NCBI GenBank assembly: GCA_048884785.1 | Contig: JBHLQM010000074.1 | Location: 1-13,795, forward strand | Length of the DNA stretch: 13,795 nucleotides | Direction of reading: 5' to 3' | From: Candidatus Thorarchaeota archaeon | Lineage (GTDB): Archaea > Asgardarchaeota > Thorarchaeia > Thorarchaeales > Thorarchaeaceae | In this document: one piece after another, positions 1,877-13,795 of the stretch | Layout: each line of letters opens with the position of its first letter | Position numbering within the stretch: position 1 is the first letter of the stretch | The notes under the pieces: generated by a model | Told to the model about the DNA's origin: nothing | What the model saw: the letters and a program-made list of their open reading frames with translations, nothing else | The model's database searches: none | Program-made: the position numbers and the translations under genes

Positions 1877-3751
1877 TTGAACGAAACGATGCGCACACTT
1901 GAAACAGCGCTTACTGATGCCAATCTACGAAAGCTATTGGCTATCCCGAATAAGCATGTACACCAATTTGTGGCAGATGCCATTATGTTATGCAAGCCCA
2001 TGAAGGTATTCGTTTGCAATGACTCAGAGATAGATACCGAGTACATCAGGCGTACTGCAATTGCGAGAGGAGAAGAAACGCCTCTGGCAAATCCAAATCA
2101 CACAGTTCATTTTGATGGATATTGGGATCAAGCCCGAGATAAAGAGAGTACAGTATACCTTGTCCCAAAGGGTGATAGTCTCGGGGAACAATTGGCCCAG
2201 ATTGATAGAGATACAGGGCTTGCCACTGTCGACAAGTTGCTTGAAGGAAGTATGAACAACAAAAAGATGGTTGTTCGCTTTTTCTCACTCGGTCCGCTTG
2301 ATTCCGTATTCTCCATTCCCGTCGTCCAAATTACTGATTCCTTCTATGTGGCACATAGCGAGGATCTATTATACAGAAGGGGATACGAATACTTCAGACG
2401 ATTGCATGAGGATAGAGAGATTTTCCGAATGTTGCATTCATCAGGAAAACTGATGCACTCAGTTAGTATTGATTGGAAAAAACGTGGTGTCATGGTTGAT
2501 TATCTTGAGAACAAGGTATACAGCGTGAATACACAATATGCAGGAAACGCTATTGGTCTGAAGAAGCTTGCACTTCGACTTGCCATTCGAAAAGCTGACC
2601 GTGAAAGATGGCTTGCTGAACATATGTTTCTTATGGCAATTCACGGACCTGGTGGTCGAAAGACATACTTCACTGGCGCGTTCCCCTCAGGATGCGGCAA
2701 AACTAGCACATCAATGGTTCGAGGGAATACTATCGTTGGTGATGATCTTGCCTACATGCGTGTGATAGATGGTAAAGTGCGAGCAGTTAATGTTGAACGC
2801 GGCATCTTTGGAATAATCCGCTCTGTTACGGCAAAAGACGACCCTGTCATATGGGATGTTCTCCACTCAAAGCATCCAGTCATTTTCTCTAATGTATTGG
2901 TCACCGAAGATGCAGAGCCTCGCTGGTTAGATGATGGCTTGGAGGATCCTGAATCGGGCGTCAATCACTCTGGTGAGTGGTTTAAAGGAAAAATCGACCG
3001 AGATAAGGAAGAGATACCTTTTGCCCATAAGAATGCGCGTTATACTTTCAGTCTTGAGGGGTTGTCAAATCTTGATGAAGCACTTGAAGATCCCAGAGGT
3101 GTTGAAGTTGGTGGAATTCTATATGGGGGTCGTGATTCAGATACCTGGGTGCCTGTTCAGCAATCTCTAGATTGGGAGCATGGTGTCATTACAATGGGTG
3201 CATCTCTTGAATCAGAAACCACTGCTGCCACACTTGGTCCAAGTGGAATACGGAGGTTTCAGCCATTCTCAAATCTTGATTTTCTCTCTATACCATTGGG
3301 AAGATATGTAGGCAATCACCTCGACTTCATCAGAAATGTTGAATCACAGCCCAGCATTTTTGCCGTTAATTATTTTCTGAAGAACGAAGAAGGTCAATTC
3401 ATTACTGATAGAATGGATAAGCTCGTATGGTTGAAATGGATGGAGCTCAGAGTACATGAGGAAGTCAAGGCAATTAGGACCCCTACTGGCTATATTCCTC
3501 TCTACGCTGATTTGAATGATCTTTTTAAAACATATCTTGGCAAGGACTACTCACTTGATGATTACAATCTTCAGTTCATGACGCGAATACCTCAACTATT
3601 GGCAAAATTGGATCGCATCGAGAAGATCTACAAAGAAAGCGTTAATGATACACCAAAGAACATGCTTGAGGTGTTCAATTCACAAAGGAGTCGATTAATC
3701 GCCGCTGAGGAAAAGTTGGGTGAGTACATTCATCCTGATGCATTTATGTAA
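1877..3751 (+). CDS. pckG: Phosphoenolpyruvate carboxykinase (GTP-dependent)
   Basis: 624-aa ORF with YAGNAIGLKKLALR, WLAEHM, P-loop AFPSGCGKTS, VGDDLAYM, AVNVERGIFG, AHKNARYT and ILYGGRD motifs. TTG start after AGGTG; alternative ATG at 1889. Confidence 0.97.
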   Translation: MNETMRTLETALTDANLRKLLAIPNKHVHQFVADAIMLCKPMKVFVCNDSEIDTEYIRRTAIARGEETPLANPNHTVHFDGYWDQARDKESTVYLVPKGDSLGEQLAQIDRDTGLATVDKLLEGSMNNKKMVVRFFSLGPLDSVFSIPVVQITDSFYVAHSEDLLYRRGYEYFRRLHEDREIFRMLHSSGKLMHSVSIDWKKRGVMVDYLENKVYSVNTQYAGNAIGLKKLALRLAIRKADRERWLAEHMFLMAIHGPGGRKTYFTGAFPSGCGKTSTSMVRGNTIVGDDLAYMRVIDGKVRAVNVERGIFGIIRSVTAKDDPVIWDVLHSKHPVIFSNVLVTEDAEPRWLDDGLEDPESGVNHSGEWFKGKIDRDKEEIPFAHKNARYTFSLEGLSNLDEALEDPRGVEVGGILYGGRDSDTWVPVQQSLDWEHGVITMGASLESETTAATLGPSGIRRFQPFSNLDFLSIPLGRYVGNHLDFIRNVESQPSIFAVNYFLKNEEGQFITDRMDKLVWLKWMELRVHEEVKAIRTPTGYIPLYADLNDLFKTYLGKDYSLDDYNLQFMTRIPQLLAKLDRIEKIYKESVNDTPKNMLEVFNSQRSRLIAAEEKLGEYIHPDAFM

Positions 3752-4393: not shown

Positions 4394-7189
4394 ATGACAG
4401 TTGATCAACCGACTCAAACAGTAACTGAACCTGAAAAACAGATTCCCAGCGCACTCGTGATAGGAGGCGGGGTTGCAGGTATGCAGGCGGCCCTTGATAT
4501 TGCAAATCAGGGCTTTTTGGTACACCTTGTGGAAAAGACCTCAAGCATCGGAGGAAGAATGGCCGCCATTGACAAGACATTCCCAACGTTGGACTGTTCT
4601 GCCTGTATCCTTACTCCACGACTAAGTGAGGTCGCAAGGCATCCAAATATTGAGCTACTCACATATTCAGAAGTCAAGCGAGTGACAGGAAAAGCCGGAA
4701 ACTTCCATGTAGAGGTTCTCCGAAAACCACGATATATTCACGAGGACAAGTGTTCTGGATGCGGTGATTGTGTAGCCGTATGTCCGATTGAAACTGCAAA
4801 CGAGTTTGACGAGGGTCTCGGATTCAGAAAAGCAACGTATGTCCCGTTTCCGCAAGCCACTCCAAATGCATACACCATTGACAAACGAGATCATCCCGCT
4901 TGTAGAATAAATTGTCCCGCAGAAGTGAATTGTCAGGCATTTGTAACTCTTCTCAACCAAGAGAGGTATGCTGATGCACTTCGTATTGTTCGAGATGCAA
5001 TTCCGTTTCCGGGGATATTAGGAAGAGTTTGCGTTGGCTGGTGTGAAGGCCAGTGTCAGCGCGGGGAGTATGATGGAAGTGTAAGCATTCGTAACCTTCA
5101 CAGGTACCTTTCAGATTGGGAAAAGGAACAAGGGACCAAGAAACCTGTTGTCGCCAATATTGACAAGAAAGAGAGAGTAGCTGTAGTTGGTGCAGGTCCT
5201 GGAGGAATCTCATGTGCCTATCAGCTCGCCAGAATGGGATACCCTGTTACGGTATTTGAGAAACGTTCTGAACTTGGCGGTCTGTTAAAATGGGCAATTC
5301 CGGAATATAGACTGCCTCGGGATATTCTTCAGGAAGAGATTGAATGGGTCGCAGAACATGGCGTGGAGTTCAGATCAAATGTACATATAGAATCTCTAAA
5401 GCAGCTGAAAAAACAAGGTTTCAAAGCCATCTTTTTGGCAACAGGAGCCTCAAAGAGCAACAAGCTATCGATACCCGGGGAAGATTCAAAGGGTGTCTAT
5501 CATGCGATTGATTTTCTTGACAGAGTTGCTTCGGGCGAAAAGGTAACCGTGGGAGAAAGAGTTGTTGTGATTGGCGGTGGCGACGCTGCCATTGACTCAG
5601 CAAGAACGGCTCTTCGCCTAGGTGCGTCAGAAGTCACAGTAGTCTATAGACGTGGACAGACGGAGATTCCAGCAATACCTTCTGAGGTTGAAGATTCCCG
5701 ACAGGAAGGTATCCGTCTAATGCTGCTTACAGCACCTGTTGAGGTATTAACTCAGAAAGGTGCAGTTCAAGGTGTAAAATGCATACGCATGAAGCTCGGA
5801 GCTCCTGACCACTCTGGAAGATGCCGTCCTGTTCCCATTGCAGATTCCGAATTTACTGTAGTTGCTGATCAGATGATAATTGCAGTGGGTCAGACCGTGG
5901 AGCCAATTCCCATACATGAAGATCTGGATACAACCGAATGGGGAACCCTTATGGTTGACCAGATAACACTTGAAACAAGTGAGAAGGGTGTTTTCGCAGG
6001 AGGAGATTGTGTCTTGGGTCCTGCCACAGTTGTACAGGCAATTGGGCATGGTAAGAAGGCTGCAATCTCAATTGATCGTTATCTCCGAGGAGAGGATATG
6101 GAAGCTGGACGCGAGCCGGAACACTATCGCATTGCAAAACCGGCTGTCAATCAAGCCCACTTTAAATTCCAGCCTCGAACTGAAATGCGAAAGGCAAGTA
6201 TCCGGAGCAGAAAAGGTGATTTCTCTGAGGTAGAACTCGGATTCTATCACGACATGGCTGTAGCAGAGGCCGGTCGATGTTTGAACTGCACTGTGTGCTG
6301 TGAATGTCTTGAGTGTGTCAAGGCATGTGAGCGGAATGCTATTGATCATAGTATGCGCGAAGAGAAGTTGCACCTTAATGTTGGAGCTATTGTGGTGGCT
6401 TCTGGATACAAGCTCTATGATGTGTCCAAATACCCACGCCTAGGATTTGGTAAGTTCCAGAACGTAATCACAGCAATGGAATATGAGAGGTTGATTAATG
6501 CTGCTGGTCCCACGCAAGGTCACTTGATACGATTCAGTGATGGCAGGATGCCAAAGAGCATAGGATTTGTGCAATGCGTTGGTGCACGTGATACACAGAA
6601 AGGTGTTCCAAACTGTTCTCGTGTCTGCTGCATGTATGGTATAAAGAACGCAGTGATGGCAAAGGAACATGACCCTGATGCAGAGGTCACAGTTTACTAT
6701 GCTGACATCAGAGCATTCGGAAAAGGCTTCGAAGAGTTTTATGAAATGGCACGAACACGATTCGGAGTCAATTTTGTTCGAGGCCGTGTCGCTGAAGTCG
6801 ACGAAGATCCGATGAACGACAACCTGCTCGTTCAGGTCGAGAATACAGCAGATGGGACATTAATGAATGTTGAACATGATCTTCTTGTATTGAGCCCAGG
6901 ACTCATACCAAACGACGATACAGCTTTCATGGCAGATGAGCTAGGTATAACCCTGGATGACGAGGGATACATCGATACACGAGATGAGCTAGTTTCGCCT
7001 GTTGACACAAACAGGGATGGCATCTTTGTGTGTGGCTGCACAGACGGCCCCAAGGATATTCCGGATAGCGTAACCGCCGGAAGTGCAGCGGCAATGCATG
7101 CATCCATCATATTGGTGGAAAAGGAAAATGAACGAGGTGGCGAACTGAATACAGGAGCTGCCAAGGAACGGGAGGTTTCAGTGAAATAA
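4394..7189 (+). CDS. hdrA: HdrA-like flavoprotein (HdrL-type) with an inserted GltD/NfnB-like NAD(P)H oxidoreductase module; lacks the HdrA N-terminal domain and C-terminal ferredoxin
   Basis: ALVIGGGVAG FAD motif, KTFPTLDCSACILTP, CSGCGDCVAVCP; insert with PACRINCP, PFPGILGRVC..CEGQC, VAVVGAGPGG, VVVIGGGDAAIDSARTALRLGA..YRR, GVFAGGD; then CCECLECVKAC, QCVGARD..CSRVCCMYGIK and GPKDIPDSV. Confidence 0.93.
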   Translation: MTVDQPTQTVTEPEKQIPSALVIGGGVAGMQAALDIANQGFLVHLVEKTSSIGGRMAAIDKTFPTLDCSACILTPRLSEVARHPNIELLTYSEVKRVTGKAGNFHVEVLRKPRYIHEDKCSGCGDCVAVCPIETANEFDEGLGFRKATYVPFPQATPNAYTIDKRDHPACRINCPAEVNCQAFVTLLNQERYADALRIVRDAIPFPGILGRVCVGWCEGQCQRGEYDGSVSIRNLHRYLSDWEKEQGTKKPVVANIDKKERVAVVGAGPGGISCAYQLARMGYPVTVFEKRSELGGLLKWAIPEYRLPRDILQEEIEWVAEHGVEFRSNVHIESLKQLKKQGFKAIFLATGASKSNKLSIPGEDSKGVYHAIDFLDRVASGEKVTVGERVVVIGGGDAAIDSARTALRLGASEVTVVYRRGQTEIPAIPSEVEDSRQEGIRLMLLTAPVEVLTQKGAVQGVKCIRMKLGAPDHSGRCRPVPIADSEFTVVADQMIIAVGQTVEPIPIHEDLDTTEWGTLMVDQITLETSEKGVFAGGDCVLGPATVVQAIGHGKKAAISIDRYLRGEDMEAGREPEHYRIAKPAVNQAHFKFQPRTEMRKASIRSRKGDFSEVELGFYHDMAVAEAGRCLNCTVCCECLECVKACERNAIDHSMREEKLHLNVGAIVVASGYKLYDVSKYPRLGFGKFQNVITAMEYERLINAAGPTQGHLIRFSDGRMPKSIGFVQCVGARDTQKGVPNCSRVCCMYGIKNAVMAKEHDPDAEVTVYYADIRAFGKGFEEFYEMARTRFGVNFVRGRVAEVDEDPMNDNLLVQVENTADGTLMNVEHDLLVLSPGLIPNDDTAFMADELGITLDDEGYIDTRDELVSPVDTNRDGIFVCGCTDGPKDIPDSVTAGSAAAMHASIILVEKENERGGELNTGAAKEREVSVK

Positions 7190-7205
7190 CTAGGAGTTGA
7201 AAGAA

Positions 7206-7730
7206 ATGGTTTTGGAAGAATCATCACAACCAAAAAGCCATACACCATCATCTCACTTTGCCAAGGAAATATCCGTCATTGAGGGTGGAGAGGCAATCAA
7301 CAAGTGTGTACAATGTGGCATTTGCACAGCAAGTTGTGTTGTGGCAAGGGCTACTGACATATATCGACCTAGAAGACTCATTCAGAAGATCATCCTCGGG
7401 AAGAGAGAGGAGGTTCTTCAGGACCCACAGTCTTGGTATTGCATGACGTGCAGGATGTGCGAAGAGCGATGTCAGGAAGGAGTCTCTCCTGCGGAAATTT
7501 TCCACGCAGTTAGGGTCGTTGCCGCGCGGGAAGGGCACATACCCAATGTGTTTAGGCAGACGGTTAAGACGGTTCTACAAGATGGATGGCTTCTCAAGGA
7601 TGCGTATTCTGACTTCACCCAAGATGAACGCGAGGATCTTGGTTTGAATCCTGACTTGCACATCAATACTGAGTTTGGAGAACGTTTGAGACATAGGTAC
7701 TTCAGCGATGAAGAGGAGGTGCACATCTAG
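7206..7730 (+). CDS. hdrC: Heterodisulfide reductase subunit C (2x[4Fe-4S])
   Basis: KCVQCGICTASC and WYCMTCRMCEERCQEGV motifs, PRRLIQKIILG. ATG at 7206 is preferred over TTG 7197 because the GGAG SD is at 7193-7196. Confidence 0.92.
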   Translation: MVLEESSQPKSHTPSSHFAKEISVIEGGEAINKCVQCGICTASCVVARATDIYRPRRLIQKIILGKREEVLQDPQSWYCMTCRMCEERCQEGVSPAEIFHAVRVVAAREGHIPNVFRQTVKTVLQDGWLLKDAYSDFTQDEREDLGLNPDLHINTEFGERLRHRYFSDEEEVHI

Positions 7731-8605
7731 TGGACCTAATTCTCTACAGAGGATGTACAACCCCTGTTCGACTACCTGCCTACGAGGCTGCAACAATTGC
7801 GGTTCTTGAGAAACTCGGTGTGCATATCTATGAGATGTCAGATGCCAATTGCTGCGGAGCCCAGTATGTTGAATCCATGGATAAGATGGCATTTGCTGCA
7901 ATGAGCGGCAGAATACTTGCTCTCGCTGAGAGAGAAGAGAAGGACATTCTCGCCCTTTGTGGTGCTTGCTCCGGCTCCCTCAAGACAACCAAGCATTTGC
8001 TCGATACTGATATCCGGGCAAGGGATGAGGTCAATTCTCTATTGGCAGAGGAGGGTCTAAAGTATACAGGGAAAGTGCGAGTAAAGCACTTGCTGCAGGT
8101 ACTCGCCGAAGATATCGGTTTTGACGCAATCGAGCGTGCAGTTGTAAACCCGTACAAAGATGTGAAACTTGCGGCGCATTATGGATGCCACGTAACCCGA
8201 CCCTATGAAATTGTACAGGTAGATGATCCTGAGAACCCGACAATCCTTGATCGCCTTGTTGAGGCAGCTGGTGCCACTGCTGTCGATTATCCAGGAAAGA
8301 CAAGATGCTGCGGCGGACCGATGCTCGCAATGGATGAGGAAGTAGCAGCTCGAATTGGACTAGACAAAATTGACAATATTCTGGACTCCGGGGCAAATGG
8401 TGTAGTCACAGCATGTGTCTTCTGCGACATCCAGCTGACTCAGGTACAGTTCGGATCACAAGCTGGGAAGAGAACGAAGATACCTATAATGCCTATACCC
8501 CAGTTTCTGGGCCCAGCACTCGGAATAGATGAAGACATTCTTGGTATTGAGCTGAATAAAATCGATCCTCATCAGGTGATAAGTTGCAGTGGGGTGAATC
8601 AATGA
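7730..8605 (+). CDS. hdrB: Heterodisulfide reductase subunit B (two CCG domains)
   Basis: YRGC..NCCG..CGAC and HYGCH..CCGG..CVFC motifs. GTG start overlaps the hdrC TAG; SD GGAGGTG at 7715-7721. Confidence 0.95.
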   Translation: MDLILYRGCTTPVRLPAYEAATIAVLEKLGVHIYEMSDANCCGAQYVESMDKMAFAAMSGRILALAEREEKDILALCGACSGSLKTTKHLLDTDIRARDEVNSLLAEEGLKYTGKVRVKHLLQVLAEDIGFDAIERAVVNPYKDVKLAAHYGCHVTRPYEIVQVDDPENPTILDRLVEAAGATAVDYPGKTRCCGGPMLAMDEEVAARIGLDKIDNILDSGANGVVTACVFCDIQLTQVQFGSQAGKRTKIPIMPIPQFLGPALGIDEDILGIELNKIDPHQVISCSGVNQ

Positions 8606-10383
8606 CAGAAGGTCAGGTGGAGTCCGTTTCTGCAGAACTCAACGCTACGCCACGGATTGGCGTATTTGTATGTCACTGTGGTCATAATATTGCAGGTGTG
8701 GTAGATGTAGAAAAAGTTGCAGACTCTGCTAAGAAACTACCGAATGTTGCATTCGCGACTCATGAAATGTTCACCTGTTCTGATGCAGGGCAGGAGCTAA
8801 TTCGTGAGAAGATAAAGGAGTGCAATCTCAATCGTGTGGTTGTAGCTAGCTGTTCGCCTCGTATGCATGAACCAACATTTCGTCGAGTTGTTGAAGAAGC
8901 AGGGTTAAACAGATATCTCTTTGAACAGGTGAATCTTAGAGAGCATGTTTCTTGGTGCCACTCAAGGGAGCCAAACGCAGCCACACAGAAAGCATCTGAT
9001 CTCATTCGGATGGCAGTCGCGCGAGCTGCAGAACTCGAAGCATTGCCGATAAAGCGAGTACAAATAACTCCTAGAACACTTATTGTGGGTGGCGGAATCG
9101 CAGGCATCAGAGCAGCATTGGATGTCGCAGATCGTGGATTTGAAGCAGTCATTGTTGAACGTGATTCGGAATTAGGTGGCAATGTTCGAAAATGGTCGCA
9201 TATGTTCCCTGGTGAAAAACCAGGAAAGGAAGTTCTGAAGCCCTTAATTGAGCGCGCTCAGAAACACAAGAATATCAAAATCCTTACTGGCGCGCATGTC
9301 GAGAACTTTGAGGGGTATGTTGGAAACTTCGAAGCCCATATTGCGGTTCAAGGGCTCAAAAATACAAAGAAGTTTCAGGTTGGCACCGTCATCGTTGCCA
9401 CAGGATTTGAACCATTTACACCCCAAGGCCACTATGCCTATGGTGAAAGCCCTGATATCCTAACGCTAGCCGAGCTTCAATCGCTTCCAGATGAAGAGCA
9501 ATACCTTAGACGAAGTGACAGCAAGCCTGTAAAGAAAGTTGCCTTCATAGGCTGCGTAGGTTCTCGTGAGCCAGGAGTGAAGGGGCATGAGCATTGTTCG
9601 CGATACTGCTGTTCTGCTCTTGCCAAGACGGCTGCAATCATGAAGAAACGGCTCGATGAAGCTATTATCCTGTATCAAGATATTCGCACCTATGGAAAAG
9701 ACCACGAGGAATTCCAACGAATCGCTCGTGATAGGCATGTTATCTACTCAAAATTCCCAACCGAGAATAAACCCAAAGTAATTGTAAAGAATAAGAAGAT
9801 CAAACTATACTGGCATGATGTTTTCTCAGATTCACCACTTGATTTTGAGCCAGACCTCCTCATTCTTGCGTCTGCAATGACACCGCCGGATGGCATAGAA
9901 GAGGTTTCGCATGCGTTTGGCCTGACTCGTAGTGGTGATGGATTCTTCAATCCGGAGCACATCAAATTGGCTCCCGTATCCACTCATACAGCAGGAATCA
10001 TGATAGCTGGAGCAGCGCAGGCTGCAAAGAATGCATCTGAGGCTGTGATTGATGCAAGTGGGGCGGCAGCGAAAGTTGTTGGATTAATGGCAAAGGGAGC
10101 TGTGGAGATCGAGTCAACAGTGTCCAGAGTACTTCCCGAGCTTTGTTCGTCATGTGCTACATGCATTACAGCCTGTCCATATCGAGCTATTGAGTGGGAC
10201 GAATCACGTGACCCGCACATCGCACAGGTCCAGGAAGCAAAGTGCCACGGTTGCGGAACCTGTGCTGCAGCATGTCCTAGTAGTGCTATCATCATGTTGC
10301 ATTCCACAGATAGTCAAATCATGGCGATGGTGGAGGCCTACCTCTGCCCACCGCCCGAAACCACAGGAGGTGGTGTAAAGTGA
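8602..10383 (+). CDS. hdrA: Second HdrA-like subunit with N-terminal Fe-S domain, FAD domain and C-terminal ferredoxin, but no inserted ferredoxin
   Basis: RIGVFVCHCGHNIAG, FTCS, VVASCSPRMHEPTF, NLREHVSWCH, LIVGGGIAG, GCVGSR..CSRYCC, CSSCATCITACP and CHGCGTCAAACP. ATG 8602 overlaps the hdrB TGA (ATGA) after SD GGGGTGA. Confidence 0.93.
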   Translation: MTEGQVESVSAELNATPRIGVFVCHCGHNIAGVVDVEKVADSAKKLPNVAFATHEMFTCSDAGQELIREKIKECNLNRVVVASCSPRMHEPTFRRVVEEAGLNRYLFEQVNLREHVSWCHSREPNAATQKASDLIRMAVARAAELEALPIKRVQITPRTLIVGGGIAGIRAALDVADRGFEAVIVERDSELGGNVRKWSHMFPGEKPGKEVLKPLIERAQKHKNIKILTGAHVENFEGYVGNFEAHIAVQGLKNTKKFQVGTVIVATGFEPFTPQGHYAYGESPDILTLAELQSLPDEEQYLRRSDSKPVKKVAFIGCVGSREPGVKGHEHCSRYCCSALAKTAAIMKKRLDEAIILYQDIRTYGKDHEEFQRIARDRHVIYSKFPTENKPKVIVKNKKIKLYWHDVFSDSPLDFEPDLLILASAMTPPDGIEEVSHAFGLTRSGDGFFNPEHIKLAPVSTHTAGIMIAGAAQAAKNASEAVIDASGAAAKVVGLMAKGAVEIESTVSRVLPELCSSCATCITACPYRAIEWDESRDPHIAQVQEAKCHGCGTCAAACPSSAIIMLHSTDSQIMAMVEAYLCPPPETTGGGVK

Positions 10384-10823
10384 CGACAACGTCAAATGAA
10401 GTATCAGTCGAATTCGAGTGGGAACCGAGAATAGTTGCCTACTGCTGCAACTGGTGTTCCTATGCCGGAGCTGACCTAGCTGGAACAAGCAGAATACAAT
10501 ATCCGCCTAATGCTAGAATTCTCCGTGTGAACTGCACAGGGAGAATTGATCCTGAGTTCATCTTGGCTGCCCTTGATATGGGCGCAGATGGAGTTCTGGT
10601 TTCTGGGTGCCATCCAGGGGACTGTCACTATACTAGCGGCAATCTCAAGGCACGAGCAAGATGGGCACTCATGGAGAAGGTGATAGAGCAATCAGGTGTC
10701 AATCCAAAGCGAGTGCGTCTGCAATGGGCAAGCGCCTCAGAGGCACAAATCTTCGCTGATGGGGTTCGAACACTTGTCGACCAAGTTCGTGAGCTTGGAC
10801 CAATTGAGAGGGAGTGGCGATGA
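10380..10823 (+). CDS. mvhD: F420-non-reducing hydrogenase [2Fe-2S] subunit D (all-cysteine form)
   Basis: IVAYCCNWCSYAGADLAGTSRIQYP, RVNCTGRIDP, GADGVLVSGCHPGDCHY, WASASEA. GTGA overlap with the hdrA2 stop. Confidence 0.96.
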   Translation: MTTTSNEVSVEFEWEPRIVAYCCNWCSYAGADLAGTSRIQYPPNARILRVNCTGRIDPEFILAALDMGADGVLVSGCHPGDCHYTSGNLKARARWALMEKVIEQSGVNPKRVRLQWASASEAQIFADGVRTLVDQVRELGPIEREWR

Positions 10824-11053
10824 GAAGATTCTCAGGTTTCTTTGAACAAAAACATAGTGAAGTCCGACATCAGCGCCAGAGGATTAAGGAAGCAGTGAGT
10901 GGCGGCGCAAATACGGTAGACAAGATTTCAGAGGCCACCAAAATGCCCAAGGAGCTTGTAGTATGGAATCTCATGGGCTTGCTAAAGTGGGGTCAGGTTG
11001 AAGTTTGTGGTGAAGTGAACCATGAACCTGTGTACGCTATCAAGGAGGCCTAA
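10820..11053 (+). CDS. Small winged-helix-like protein (77 aa), function unknown
   Basis: ATGA overlap with mvhD and a 2-nt gap to mvhG. The pattern IKEAVSGGANTVDKISEATKMPKELVVWNLMGLLKWGQVEV..PVYAI fits a helix-turn-helix plus beta-wing; fold assigned by eye. Confidence 0.8.
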   Translation: MRRFSGFFEQKHSEVRHQRQRIKEAVSGGANTVDKISEATKMPKELVVWNLMGLLKWGQVEVCGEVNHEPVYAIKEA

Positions 11054-11055
11054 TA

Positions 11056-11991
11056 ATGGGAGATCCTGTACCTGTTGCAATGGCTCAAGGTTCCTCATGC
11101 TGGGGATGTTTCCAAAGCCTTATTGATATCCACCTCGGACTCGCGGATGTTTTGCCGAAGTTGGATATTAAGTACTGGCAAGCTGTTGTAGACTTCAAAC
11201 TGCATCATCTTGAGGGTTATGAAGACAAGTCTATTGTTGTTGGATTCTTTGAGGGTATGGCAAGAACCGAGGAGGATATCCATCTTCTAAAGACCATGCG
11301 CAATAAGTGTCAGATTCTGATAGCCTATGGGTCTTGTTCCTGCTTCGGAGGGATTCCAACCTTGGCCAACCTCTCTGACATTGAGGAGTGCTACGATGTG
11401 AAATATCGTGAAAACAAGACATTCAGTGGCGGAAAGGTTCCATCTGAGAATATTCCAAAGATAGAAACAGTGGTCAGACCGAATTCCGACTTTGTCAACT
11501 TTGATATTTACCTACCCGGATGTCCGCCGACTCCAAAACTCATTGCGACGGCAGTGACATCTTTACTTGAAGGAAAAGAACTTGAACTTCCACCTCATAC
11601 AGTCTGTCACTACTGCAAGAGAGAGAAGAAGGAGACCCCGATTGACAACATCCTGCGTCCATTTCAGGGCATAGCTGACCCAGAACGATGCCTGCTAGAG
11701 CAAGGATACATTTGTGTGGGGTCAGCAACGTGGGGTTTGTGCGAAGGCCAGTGTGTCAATAAGGGTGCAACCTGCCGAGGTTGCTTTGGACCTCCACCTC
11801 CTATAATGGCTGACCATGGGGCAGCTTCTATCTCAATGCTGGGGACATATGCCCCTATTGAACCAGAAAAGCTTGTTGAGCAAGTCAAAGATCCTCTTGG
11901 TACTTTCTATCGTTTTGACTATGGAACAAGTCACCTCAATAGAATACGTATCAGGAGGGAAGATATCGTGAGACCCAGGGAGGTACACTAA
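11056..11991 (+). CDS. mvhG: Group 3c [NiFe(Se)]-hydrogenase small subunit (MvhG/VhuG)
   Basis: SSCWGC, EG..R, AYGSCSCFGGIP, YLPGCPP, VCHYCKR, CLLEQGYICVG..C...C..CRGCFG; SD GGAGG upstream. Confidence 0.94.
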   Translation: MGDPVPVAMAQGSSCWGCFQSLIDIHLGLADVLPKLDIKYWQAVVDFKLHHLEGYEDKSIVVGFFEGMARTEEDIHLLKTMRNKCQILIAYGSCSCFGGIPTLANLSDIEECYDVKYRENKTFSGGKVPSENIPKIETVVRPNSDFVNFDIYLPGCPPTPKLIATAVTSLLEGKELELPPHTVCHYCKREKKETPIDNILRPFQGIADPERCLLEQGYICVGSATWGLCEGQCVNKGATCRGCFGPPPPIMADHGAASISMLGTYAPIEPEKLVEQVKDPLGTFYRFDYGTSHLNRIRIRREDIVRPREVH

Positions 11992-13307
11992 TGACGAATG
12001 ATAAGACAATTCGAATTGACCCTGTAACTCGACTTGAAGGCCATGGAGCTCTAACCATTAAACTCAGTAAGGACAACAAAGTCAAAGATATCCAATATAA
12101 TGTGGGCTCTACAAGATTCTTTGAGAAGTTCCTAACTGGGCGACCAATGGAGGAAGCTCCCCGTATTGCCCCCAGGATTTGTGGAATCTGTCCTATTCCC
12201 CACCATCTGGCATCAATCAAAGCAGTTGAAGCGGCTTGGGATGTAAAACCACCACCAGCCGCAATTAAGCTGCGACGGTTGATGATTGAAGCCAAACAAC
12301 TCTCTTCACATGCAATTCATTTCTATGCCCTTGCGGCTCCTGACTTTGTATTTGGCCCGTTTGCCAATCCAGCTGTCAGAAATGTTGCGGCTGTTTTGAA
12401 GCACTTGCCAGATGTGACAGTTCAAGCCATCAAGATCATGGAGTTTGGACAAGAGCTCATTCGTGATATTGGTGCAAAATCTGTGCATCCTGTCACCGGA
12501 ATTCCGGGCGGAATGCTGAATACACTAAAGGAAGAGGAGCGTGACAAATGGCTAAAGCAAGTCCCTGAGATGCTTGAAAATGTCAACAAAACCGTAGAGC
12601 TTGCTAAGACTGTGGTCAACGCATATCTAGATGTCATAACGAAAGTTGCTGTTACACCTACATACTATATTGGTCTTACTAACAATGGCACCTTAGATAT
12701 TTATGATGGAAATGTGCGTGTGATGGACCCGGACGGCAAGATTGTTGCTGACTTTGAGCCAAAAGACTACACTAAGTACTACGGAGAACACATTCCAAAG
12801 CATGCATATGCAACCCACATTTACTTCAAACCAGCAGGATATCCTGAAGGAATTTGGAGAGCAAACACACTTGCTCGATGCAATGTTGCAGATAAGATGG
12901 CTACACCATTAGCAGATGCAGCTTTGAAGGAAATGCGGGACCTTGTGGGTCGGCCTTCACATCACACGTTTGTCTACCACTACGCACGTATTGTAGAGCT
13001 CGTGCAAGCCGCAGAGTGGATTAAGACACTACTGGAAGACCCTGACATTGTCAGTACTGATGTAAAGCTGTCAGATGTTGAACCAAAGGCTGGAGATGGT
13101 GTAGGTATTGTAGAGGCTCCACGAGGCACTTTGCTACACAATTATACAAGTGATGAGAAAGGTATGCTTGTGCATGCAAACCTCATCGTTGCTACAAATA
13201 ACAACATCGCTGGGATAGAGAAGTCTCTCATGACGGCAGCGAAACAGATCTTCGAGGATAAGGCTCTCGATAGTCTGAAACTACCGGAACCACTGGTTAA
13301 GACCTAG
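11991..13307 (+). CDS. vhuA: Group 3c hydrogenase large subunit, N-terminal chain (VhuA-type, lacks the C-terminal L2 motif)
   Basis: IDPVTRLEGH, RFFEKFLTGRP, L1 motif PRICGICPIPH, VHPV..PGG, EAPRGTLLHNY, NLIVATNNN. It ends at TAG without DPCxxCxxH. Confidence 0.93.
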   Translation: MTNDKTIRIDPVTRLEGHGALTIKLSKDNKVKDIQYNVGSTRFFEKFLTGRPMEEAPRIAPRICGICPIPHHLASIKAVEAAWDVKPPPAAIKLRRLMIEAKQLSSHAIHFYALAAPDFVFGPFANPAVRNVAAVLKHLPDVTVQAIKIMEFGQELIRDIGAKSVHPVTGIPGGMLNTLKEEERDKWLKQVPEMLENVNKTVELAKTVVNAYLDVITKVAVTPTYYIGLTNNGTLDIYDGNVRVMDPDGKIVADFEPKDYTKYYGEHIPKHAYATHIYFKPAGYPEGIWRANTLARCNVADKMATPLADAALKEMRDLVGRPSHHTFVYHYARIVELVQAAEWIKTLLEDPDIVSTDVKLSDVEPKAGDGVGIVEAPRGTLLHNYTSDEKGMLVHANLIVATNNNIAGIEKSLMTAAKQIFEDKALDSLKLPEPLVKT

Positions 13308-13318
13308 GAGATGAAGTG

Positions 13319-13483
13319 ATGACCGAAGAAATACCCGAAGGCGTACTCAACCTCATTGAGATGGTCGTACGCTGTTATGACTGCTGACTATCATGTGCGG
13401 CTCACATGGTTGTCGTTCGTGAGGATGACGATGGTGAACTGCACGAGATAGCCAGGAAGGATCTAGTGCTGGGCGGCGCATGA
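13319..13483 (+). CDS. vhuU: Selenocysteine-containing hydrogenase peptide VhuU (54 aa; Sec TGA at 13385-13387)
   Basis: MTEEIPEGVLNLIEMVVRCYDC-U-LSCAAHMVVVREDDDGELHEIARKDLVLGGA*. It has its own SD (AGGAG, 13306-13310). The TGA sits at the first Cys position of the L2 motif (RxxDPCxxCxxH) that vhuA lacks, homology continues past the TGA, and a SECIS follows. Confidence 0.95.
13385..13415 (+). promoter_or_regulatory. In-CDS hairpin starting on the Sec codon (SRE-like / bacterial-SECIS-like)
   Basis: UGACUAUCAUGUG-[CGGCU]-CACAUGGUUGUCG: 12 of 13 positions pair (two G-U pairs, one U-U mismatch). Confidence 0.65.
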
Positions 13484-13538
13484 AGGTCCAACCGAAACTC
13501 GGGTTGGACTGGACGACCCCGCAAGGGTCGCCCGCACT
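13465..13538 (+). promoter_or_regulatory. Eukaryote-type SECIS element
   Basis: AUGA (13480-83), N11, AA (13495-96), N15, GA (13512-13). Helix II GGUCCAACC/GGUUGGACU; helix I AGUGC-U-GGGC/GCCCGCACU; extra hairpin GACCC-CGCAA-GGGUC. Confidence 0.85.
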
Positions 13539-13546
13539 CTCCTTCA

Positions 13547-13558
13547 TTCTTTCTTTTT
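13547..13558 (+). terminator. Pyrimidine/oligo-U tract, likely archaeal terminator of the operon
   Basis: TTCTTTCTTTTT immediately after the SECIS and before a convergent gene. Confidence 0.55.
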
Positions 13559-13612
13559 GAATTCACTTGTCGAAAGTGTAAAACGTATTCTTGAGTGGTT
13601 CATGAAACACCT

Positions 13613-13795
13613 TCAAGATTTAGATGGAGGATTCGCAAGAATCATAAAAACAGCAATTGATAGAATGATCACTGCAAAAACAAGTATGATAATGAGGATA
13701 AGAGAATAATCCACCAGGGTGTACTCAATCTGGGATAATAGGGAAATATCGATTCCTAGAGCTGAAAAAGCTATGAGCAGAATTATTATCCATGC
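13613..13795 (-). CDS. C-terminal end of an integral membrane protein (start outside the window)
   Basis: Open frame AWIIILLIAFSALGIDISLLSQIEYTLVDYSLILIIILVFAVIILSIAVFMILANPPSKS* with two hydrophobic segments; TGA at 13615-13613. Confidence 0.7.
   Translation of the reverse strand, partial: AWIIILLIAFSALGIDISLLSQIEYTLVDYSLILIIILVFAVIILSIAVFMILANPPSKS

Follow-up and report, generated by a model that had tools for sequence, protein, structure and literature searches.

A short vhuU gene, very probably a selenoprotein gene, supplies the missing nickel-ligand motif of a split Vhu-type hydrogenase in a Thorarchaeon

VhuU selenoproteins are known from Asgard archaea, as the earlier note on this DNA had stated: they were described in Loki archaea in 2016 (PMC4989117) and in Thorarchaeota in 2018, by the account given in PMC11227280. 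A 2024 survey found the FrhA/MvhA/VhuU family in 68.3% of 227 Sec-using metagenome-assembled genomes (MAGs), and VhuU selenoproteins were reported in the same year from Atabey- and Freyarchaeia too (PMC11227280, PMC11291895). In Loki VhuU.1, the AUGA of the SECIS element is also the stop codon (Mariotti et al. 2016, PMC4989117), and eukaryote-like SECIS elements were described for the frhA and vhuU genes of Thorarchaeia (PMC11227280). The relation of Asgard Sec recoding to the origin of the eukaryotic SECIS has been argued in print since 2016, with hundreds of MAGs surveyed in 2024.

The window analysed here is a whole stretch of 13,795 nt from a Candidatus Thorarchaeota archaeon (assembly GCA_048884785.1, contig JBHLQM010000074.1). 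The source genome is a MAG of 3.6 Mb, 91% complete and with 5.4% contamination. The window encodes, all on the + strand, an operon in the order hdrCBA-vhuD-orf-vhuG-vhuA-vhuU, with the following genes upstream of vhuU:

7197-7730, + strand: hdrC, from family matches
7730-8605, + strand: hdrB, from family matches
8584-10383, + strand: hdrA, Cys form
10380-10823, + strand: vhuD/mvhD, Cys form, matching Pfam FlpD over positions 1-123 of 123
10814-11053, + strand: small conserved ORF of 79 codons between vhuD and vhuG
11056-11991, + strand: vhuG, hydrogenase small subunit, matching Pfam Oxidored_q6 and NCBIfam VhuG (235.6 bits)
11991-13307, + strand: vhuA, [NiFe] hydrogenase large subunit of 438 aa, with its TAG stop at 13305-07

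VhuA aligned end to end with PDB chain 9sfi_g (VhuA, 418 aa; E=8e-132, 415 residues aligned) and covered positions 4-417 of the 418 of NCBIfam VhuA (NF041785), while its alignment to the longer MvhA chain 5odc_F (473 aa; E=3.5e-108) ended at about residue 417-420. The N-terminal Ni motif was present as RICGICPIPHH (RxCGxCxxxH type), and the translation ran to the TAG without a DPCxxCxxH motif, so that vhuA does end without its C-terminal Ni ligands, as had been claimed. The VhuA score was 498.9 against an NCBIfam equivalog cut-off of 800, and for VhuG and VhuD the NCBIfam namesakes were the best matches, also below cut-off.

The enzyme is supported by its sequence as a group 3c Mvh/Vhu-type [NiFeSe] hydrogenase coupled to HdrABC, because VhuA, VhuG and VhuD match these families and hdrABC lies next to them. 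The best PDB and NCBIfam matches of the large subunit were VhuA and MvhA, and hdrC, hdrB, hdrA, vhuD, vhuG, vhuA and vhuU are encoded together; the earlier assignment of the operon to group 3c thus gains support on both counts.

The missing ligands were found in a separate short gene, whose features are listed below:

13306-13310, + strand: Shine-Dalgarno-like AGGAG, overlapping the vhuA TAG and placed 8 nt before the ATG at 13319; a presumed ribosome-binding function
13319-13483, + strand: vhuU coding sequence, 54 codons plus TGA stop (13481-83), from its NCBIfam match and as a conserved ORF
13379-13405, + strand: Ni-ligand motif D-C-U-L-S-C-A-A-H, whose second residue is Cys in place of the Pro of other enzymes
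13385-13387, + strand: in-frame UGA for residue 23, which alignments place on the first Cys of the DPCxxCxxH motif
13406-13480, + strand: 25-codon C-terminal tail after His29, presumably removed by a maturation endopeptidase

The gap between vhuA and vhuU measures 11 nt (13308-13318), and vhuU is read in another frame than vhuA: 22 codons, the TGA at 13385-87, LSCAAH (His being residue 29), 25 further residues and a second TGA. The earlier note had described exactly this arrangement, namely a separate frame 11 nt after vhuA with its own Shine-Dalgarno sequence, encoding RCYDC-TGA-LSCAAH plus a 25-aa tail and cut to 22 codons by the TGA, and each element agreed with the frame read here; under table 11 this frame ends after 22 codons. 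A start at GTG 13316, in the same frame and one residue longer, was dropped in favour of ATG 13319, as the relatives begin at Met.

The VhuU peptide, searched with C in place of U, matched NCBIfam VhuU (NF041786) at positions 2-35 of 45 (E=7.6e-16), its 57.6 bits falling short of the equivalog cut-off of 70 yet well outside what chance would give, and had no match in Pfam. Since the VhuU and VhuA scores both lie under the NCBI equivalog cut-offs, the two are best seen as diverged relatives of the Methanococcales proteins. With the same substitution, VhuU aligned to the last ~28 residues ahead of the cleavage site in the MvhA chains 7t2r_D, 9sw2_F and 5odc_F ('...YDPCLSC..H'). It also aligned to 9sfi_M, the 27-aa VhuU chain of the Methanococcus maripaludis Hdr-Vhu-Fwd assembly (PMC13518236), which ends in '...YDPXYSCAAHM' with X standing for Sec. 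In the MvhA chains and 9sfi_M alike, U23 and C26 lined up with the first and second Ni-ligand residues (Cys/Sec and Cys), and H29 matched the His.

The chain record of 9sfi_M ends one residue past this His, and its 27 residues are compatible with cleavage of the VhuU tail. A HycI-family protease gene was found in the genome (G000:C56:10596-10895). Tail cleavage of VhuU is known in Methanococcus voltae, and by analogy the Thorarchaeial tail would be removed after His29, leaving a mature VhuU of ~29 aa.

The vhuU stop codon coincides with the core of a SECIS element that extends downstream of the gene, and whose parts are as follows:

13456-13474, + strand: lower helix, 5' strand, inside the coding sequence (13456-61, 13465-74), from MFE folds
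13480-13483, + strand: SECIS core AUGA, its UGA doubling as the vhuU stop
13485-13493 with 13502-13510, + strand: SECIS upper stem, from covariation, closed by the apical loop GAAACUCG (13494-13501)
13512-13513, + strand: SECIS core GA, 3' half of the GA/GA quartet, GAC being invariant or nearly so
13516-13528, + strand: conserved third hairpin ACCC-CGCAA-GGGU, following the core and preceding the second strand of the lower helix
13530-13545, + strand: lower helix, 3' strand (13530-38, 13540-45), from MFE folds and alignment

In both alignments of this region, the TGA of the core was invariant and the preceding A occurred in at least 90% of rows; the GA was replaced by AA in some Loki rows, in line with published Loki elements. 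The upper stem was paired at 85% across 54 non-identical sequences, with 9 of 10 pairs changed on both sides, a covariation score reached by none of 500 shuffles. Sliding the partner strand by 1-3 columns brought the pairing down to 15-54%. In the window, this stem has 8 Watson-Crick pairs, one G-U and one A.G, and the element falls within type I lokiSECIS, whose upper stem spans 7-15 bp and tolerates no more than 2 mismatches. Its apical loop GAAACUCG has unpaired adenines at its start and contains two invariant A columns; for Thorarchaeial frhA, an apical loop G[U/G]AAA was published (Huang et al., PMC11227280).

The lower helix, which comprised up to 18 pairs in the extended alignment (81% paired, 16 of 18 changed on both sides), takes its 5' strand from the last ~25 nt of the vhuU coding sequence, that is from tail codons, and its pairs agree with the [U/C]GG_C[C/U][A/G] pattern of frhA (Huang et al., PMC11227280). 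For the third hairpin the pairing was 95%; most of its positions do not vary, apart from some exchange of AU and GC pairs at the base, and Thor, Loki, Hel, Jord and Frey rows all have it. Taken together, the kink-turn core (AUGA/GA), upper stem, side hairpin and lower helix resemble a three-helix junction of the k-junction kind. A T-rich tract follows the lower helix to ~13560 and may act as a terminator.

Model R1 of this element scored 64.6 bits at the window site and, run over the genome itself, retrieved the vhuU site only; as it includes the third hairpin, which is specific to vhuU, it is not suited to finding the SECIS elements of selD or other selenoprotein genes. Scanning 13250-13795 with Rfam gave chance-level matches only (E>=2), and no SECIS family from archaea, Asgard included, exists in that database.

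These features make the short gene very probably a genuine VhuU selenoprotein gene of this Thorarchaeial genome, as far as sequence can tell, with selenocysteine presumably inserted at residue 23. The simplest contrary reading takes the UGA at its face value in table 11, as a real stop that leaves a decayed remnant, a 22-residue peptide and an inactive hydrogenase short of two Ni ligands. In a decayed gene the TGA would be expected to drift, whereas here it was invariant. Among VhuA relatives taken from species-representative genomes (78-91% VhuA identity within Thorarchaeota, ~60% for Hermod-, Jord-, Frey-, Hel-, Atabey- and Loki-type MAGs), all 63 loci with the split gene read D-C-U-L-[SA]-C-x-A-H with TGA. 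A scan of 400 Asgard genomes gave a vhuU match in 323, and among the best 150 matches 147 had exactly one in-frame TGA, so that the TGA expected in close relatives held there and in distant ones as well. Protein-level conservation of the 31 codons past the UGA, with LSC.AH and the tail, extends over the 63 loci and hundreds of genomes. The distance from Sec codon to stop was 84 or 96 nt in almost all relatives, and 81 nt in the single locus ending in TAG. Three Cys-type relatives (L099, L100 and L101) retained the frame with TGT at the Sec codon, reading DCCLSC..H (..F in one), which together with the Cys of the MvhA chains establishes a Sec/Cys pair at this position. With a covarying SECIS and a full Sec machinery in the genome besides, a genuine stop here is very improbable. 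The window does come from a metagenome bin, where a TGA could be an assembly or sequencing error for TGC or TGT, as the earlier note had considered; at contig level, however, the TGA at 13385-87 was unchanged in X1 (12900-13405) and X5 (13229-13393), from independent DNA studies, and in the RNA-library contig X19 (13318-13537), and the same codon recurs in the 63 independently assembled loci, which leaves such an error the least credible of the readings.

One might also suppose that near-cognate decoding, or a code change throughout the genome, lets the UGA be read as Cys or Trp, given that Cys is functional at this position both in the DCC forms and in the Mvh/Vhc enzymes. TGA is nevertheless an ordinary stop in the window (hdrA, 10381-83, and the end of vhuU), and the genome has a dedicated route for Sec. 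It encodes a tRNA-Sec (56.5 bits, above the Rfam cut-off; called SeC with anticodon tca by ARAGORN), PSTK (151.8 bits), SepSecS (443.9 bits) and EFSec/SelB (272 bits), all within ~4.3 kb on contig C35, as well as selD on contig C3 (203.7 bits), itself with one in-frame TGA. The whole set of Sec machinery that the earlier note had looked to was thus recovered in this 91%-complete MAG, on contigs other than that of the window (C74). Moreover, the SECIS was confined to the TGA forms. The stops of the three Cys-type relatives were TAA in two and TGA in the third, and since these stops are not preceded by A, no AUGA is formed; no SECIS was detected in them, model R1 reaching at most 10.7 bits, on the opposite strand, against the 64.6 bits of the window. 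Decoding as Cys or Trp is therefore as improbable as termination, and insertion of Sec remains the preferred reading.

Several observations were made alongside. X19 is a soil metatranscriptome contig of 226 nt with 9 differences, which spans almost exactly vhuU and its SECIS; this is suggestive of a vhuU transcript but no proof of one, contigs being unable to show transcript ends or exclude DNA carry-over. The RNA runs X18 and X20 covered small shares of the stretch, the X18 contigs lying over 13415-13558 only. The codons TGC TGA CTA (13382-13390) were near-invariant in most of the 63 loci, synonymous positions included, a hint that UGA recoding is constrained by its context. Among the Cys-type relatives, L099 (G319:C63:34200-34600) reads DCCLSCSAF, with Phe in place of the motif's closing His, where the protease site lies, and could be a decaying or divergent paralogue for that reason; its genome has four further matches, at least one with TGA. 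In some Thorarchaeial genomes a single contig bears vhuA-vhuU twice, as with L024 and L055, both with TGA and ~9 kb apart on DXJO01000006.1, L055 having a divergent upper stem and third hairpin.

Within the operon, Sec use was limited to VhuU. Both hdrA and vhuD were checked and had no in-frame UGA, which makes them Cys forms, in contrast to their Loki counterparts. The hdrA stop TGA (10381-83) overlaps the GTG start of vhuD as GTGA (10380-10383). In Loki, UGA is avoided as the stop of hdrA where that gene and vhuD have a SECIS in common (Mariotti et al., PMC4989117), and a UGA stop of hdrA in the window fits with both genes being Cys forms. The 79-codon ORF (10814-11053) had no family match in Pfam or NCBIfam and was present at the same position in 44 Thorarchaeial loci, with 35-68% identity; its product looks like a small helical, possibly winged-helix, member of the operon. 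Upstream of hdrCBA, a 931-aa protein (4394-7189, + strand) resembled HdrA towards either end and, in between, a GltD/NfnB-like NAD(P)-binding module (PRK12771, 524 bits); possibly it is a variant of HdrA into which a pyridine-nucleotide module has been inserted. The hdr/vhu cluster is flanked by genes for a GTP-type PEP carboxykinase (1877-3751, + strand) and an aldehyde:ferredoxin oxidoreductase-like protein (3-1613, - strand).

The expression of vhuU may be pictured as follows. A ribosome starting at ATG 13319 would reach the UGA at 13385-87 with the SECIS, ~95 nt downstream, still folded, and EFSec with Sec-tRNA(Sec) would be recruited to place selenocysteine at residue 23. Onward translation would unwind the lower helix of the SECIS, and termination would take place at the UGA of 13481-83, within the melted AUGA core. 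Given the distance between the Sec codon and the stop, the SECIS would be intact at the first UGA and unwound at the second, and the latter, lying inside the melted core, would be read as a stop. The 54-aa precursor would then dock on VhuA and contribute the two absent Ni ligands, Sec23 and Cys26. After insertion of the metal, a HycI-type endopeptidase would cut behind His29 and so release the tail of 25 residues. The end product would be a [NiFeSe] VhuAGU(D) hydrogenase of group 3c, with HdrABC as its partner.

Asgard and Thorarchaeial VhuU selenoproteins, their eukaryote-like SECIS and the overlap of AUGA and stop being published, the identification made here is right but already known. Its practical side is that standard ORF callers drop vhuU; when it is missed, the Thorarchaeial group 3c hydrogenase appears short of two of the four Ni ligands, with a risk that H2 metabolism is misjudged. 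The Thorarchaeial vhuU is a further case of eukaryote-like Sec recoding in Asgard archaea, and as such bears on the origin of the eukaryotic SECIS. Three details were not found in the main text of PMC4989117, PMC11227280 and PMC11291895: the conserved Cys before Sec, the lower helix of ~18 bp formed from tail codons, and the GCAA-type hairpin with its three-way junction. The Cys before Sec was general: 63/63 loci, from seven named lineages, read DCU, and the Cys forms read DCC. It is conceivable, but rather doubtful, that the Cys-Sec dyad and the three-helix SECIS are two conserved and perhaps functional departures of Asgard VhuU from the methanogen paradigm. If so, the dyad could form a reversible selenenylsulfide, shielding the active site from oxidants or tuning Ni ligation, and the three-helix junction would explain both the uniform tail end ...ELV(T/L)GG(G/A) and the escape of the terminal UGA from recoding. 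The dyad, the lower helix within the coding sequence and the third hairpin are minor additions that leave the overall picture unchanged.

Compared with known systems, the locus shares its layout with VhuADGU of M. maripaludis (9sfi, PMC13518236), a solved enzyme that matches the Methanococcales-type split proposed beforehand. In both, vhuA is truncated and a small separate gene directly follows it, Sec takes the place of the first Cys of the C-terminal Ni motif (UxxCxxH) with a tail past the His, and the partners are VhuG, VhuD and HdrABC. They differ in the residue before Sec, which is Cys in the Thorarchaeial VhuU (DCU) and Pro in 9sfi_M (DPU), and in the SECIS, eukaryote-like (AUGA/GA) and overlapping the stop in the former, a hairpin with a GAA_A bulge in methanogens; unlike M. 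maripaludis, the Thorarchaeon is a non-methanogen host. Compared with MvhA (5odc, 9sw2, 7t2r), VhuA and VhuU jointly align to the full chain with the same spacing of the RxCGxCxxxH and C-terminal motifs, MvhA being one polypeptide with DPCLSC..H and no Sec, whereas the Thorarchaeial enzyme is split and has Sec. The vicinal Cys-Sec dyad of Asgard VhuU resembles the GCUG end of thioredoxin reductase. The locus shows no essential difference from the described Asgard VhuU proteins (PMC4989117, PMC11227280, PMC11291895), which belong to the same family and to a lineage set that includes Thorarchaeia, have ~50 aa and one Sec, and share the SECIS with its AUGA, stem of 9-10 bp, A-rich loop and GA, the AUGA there too being also the stop.
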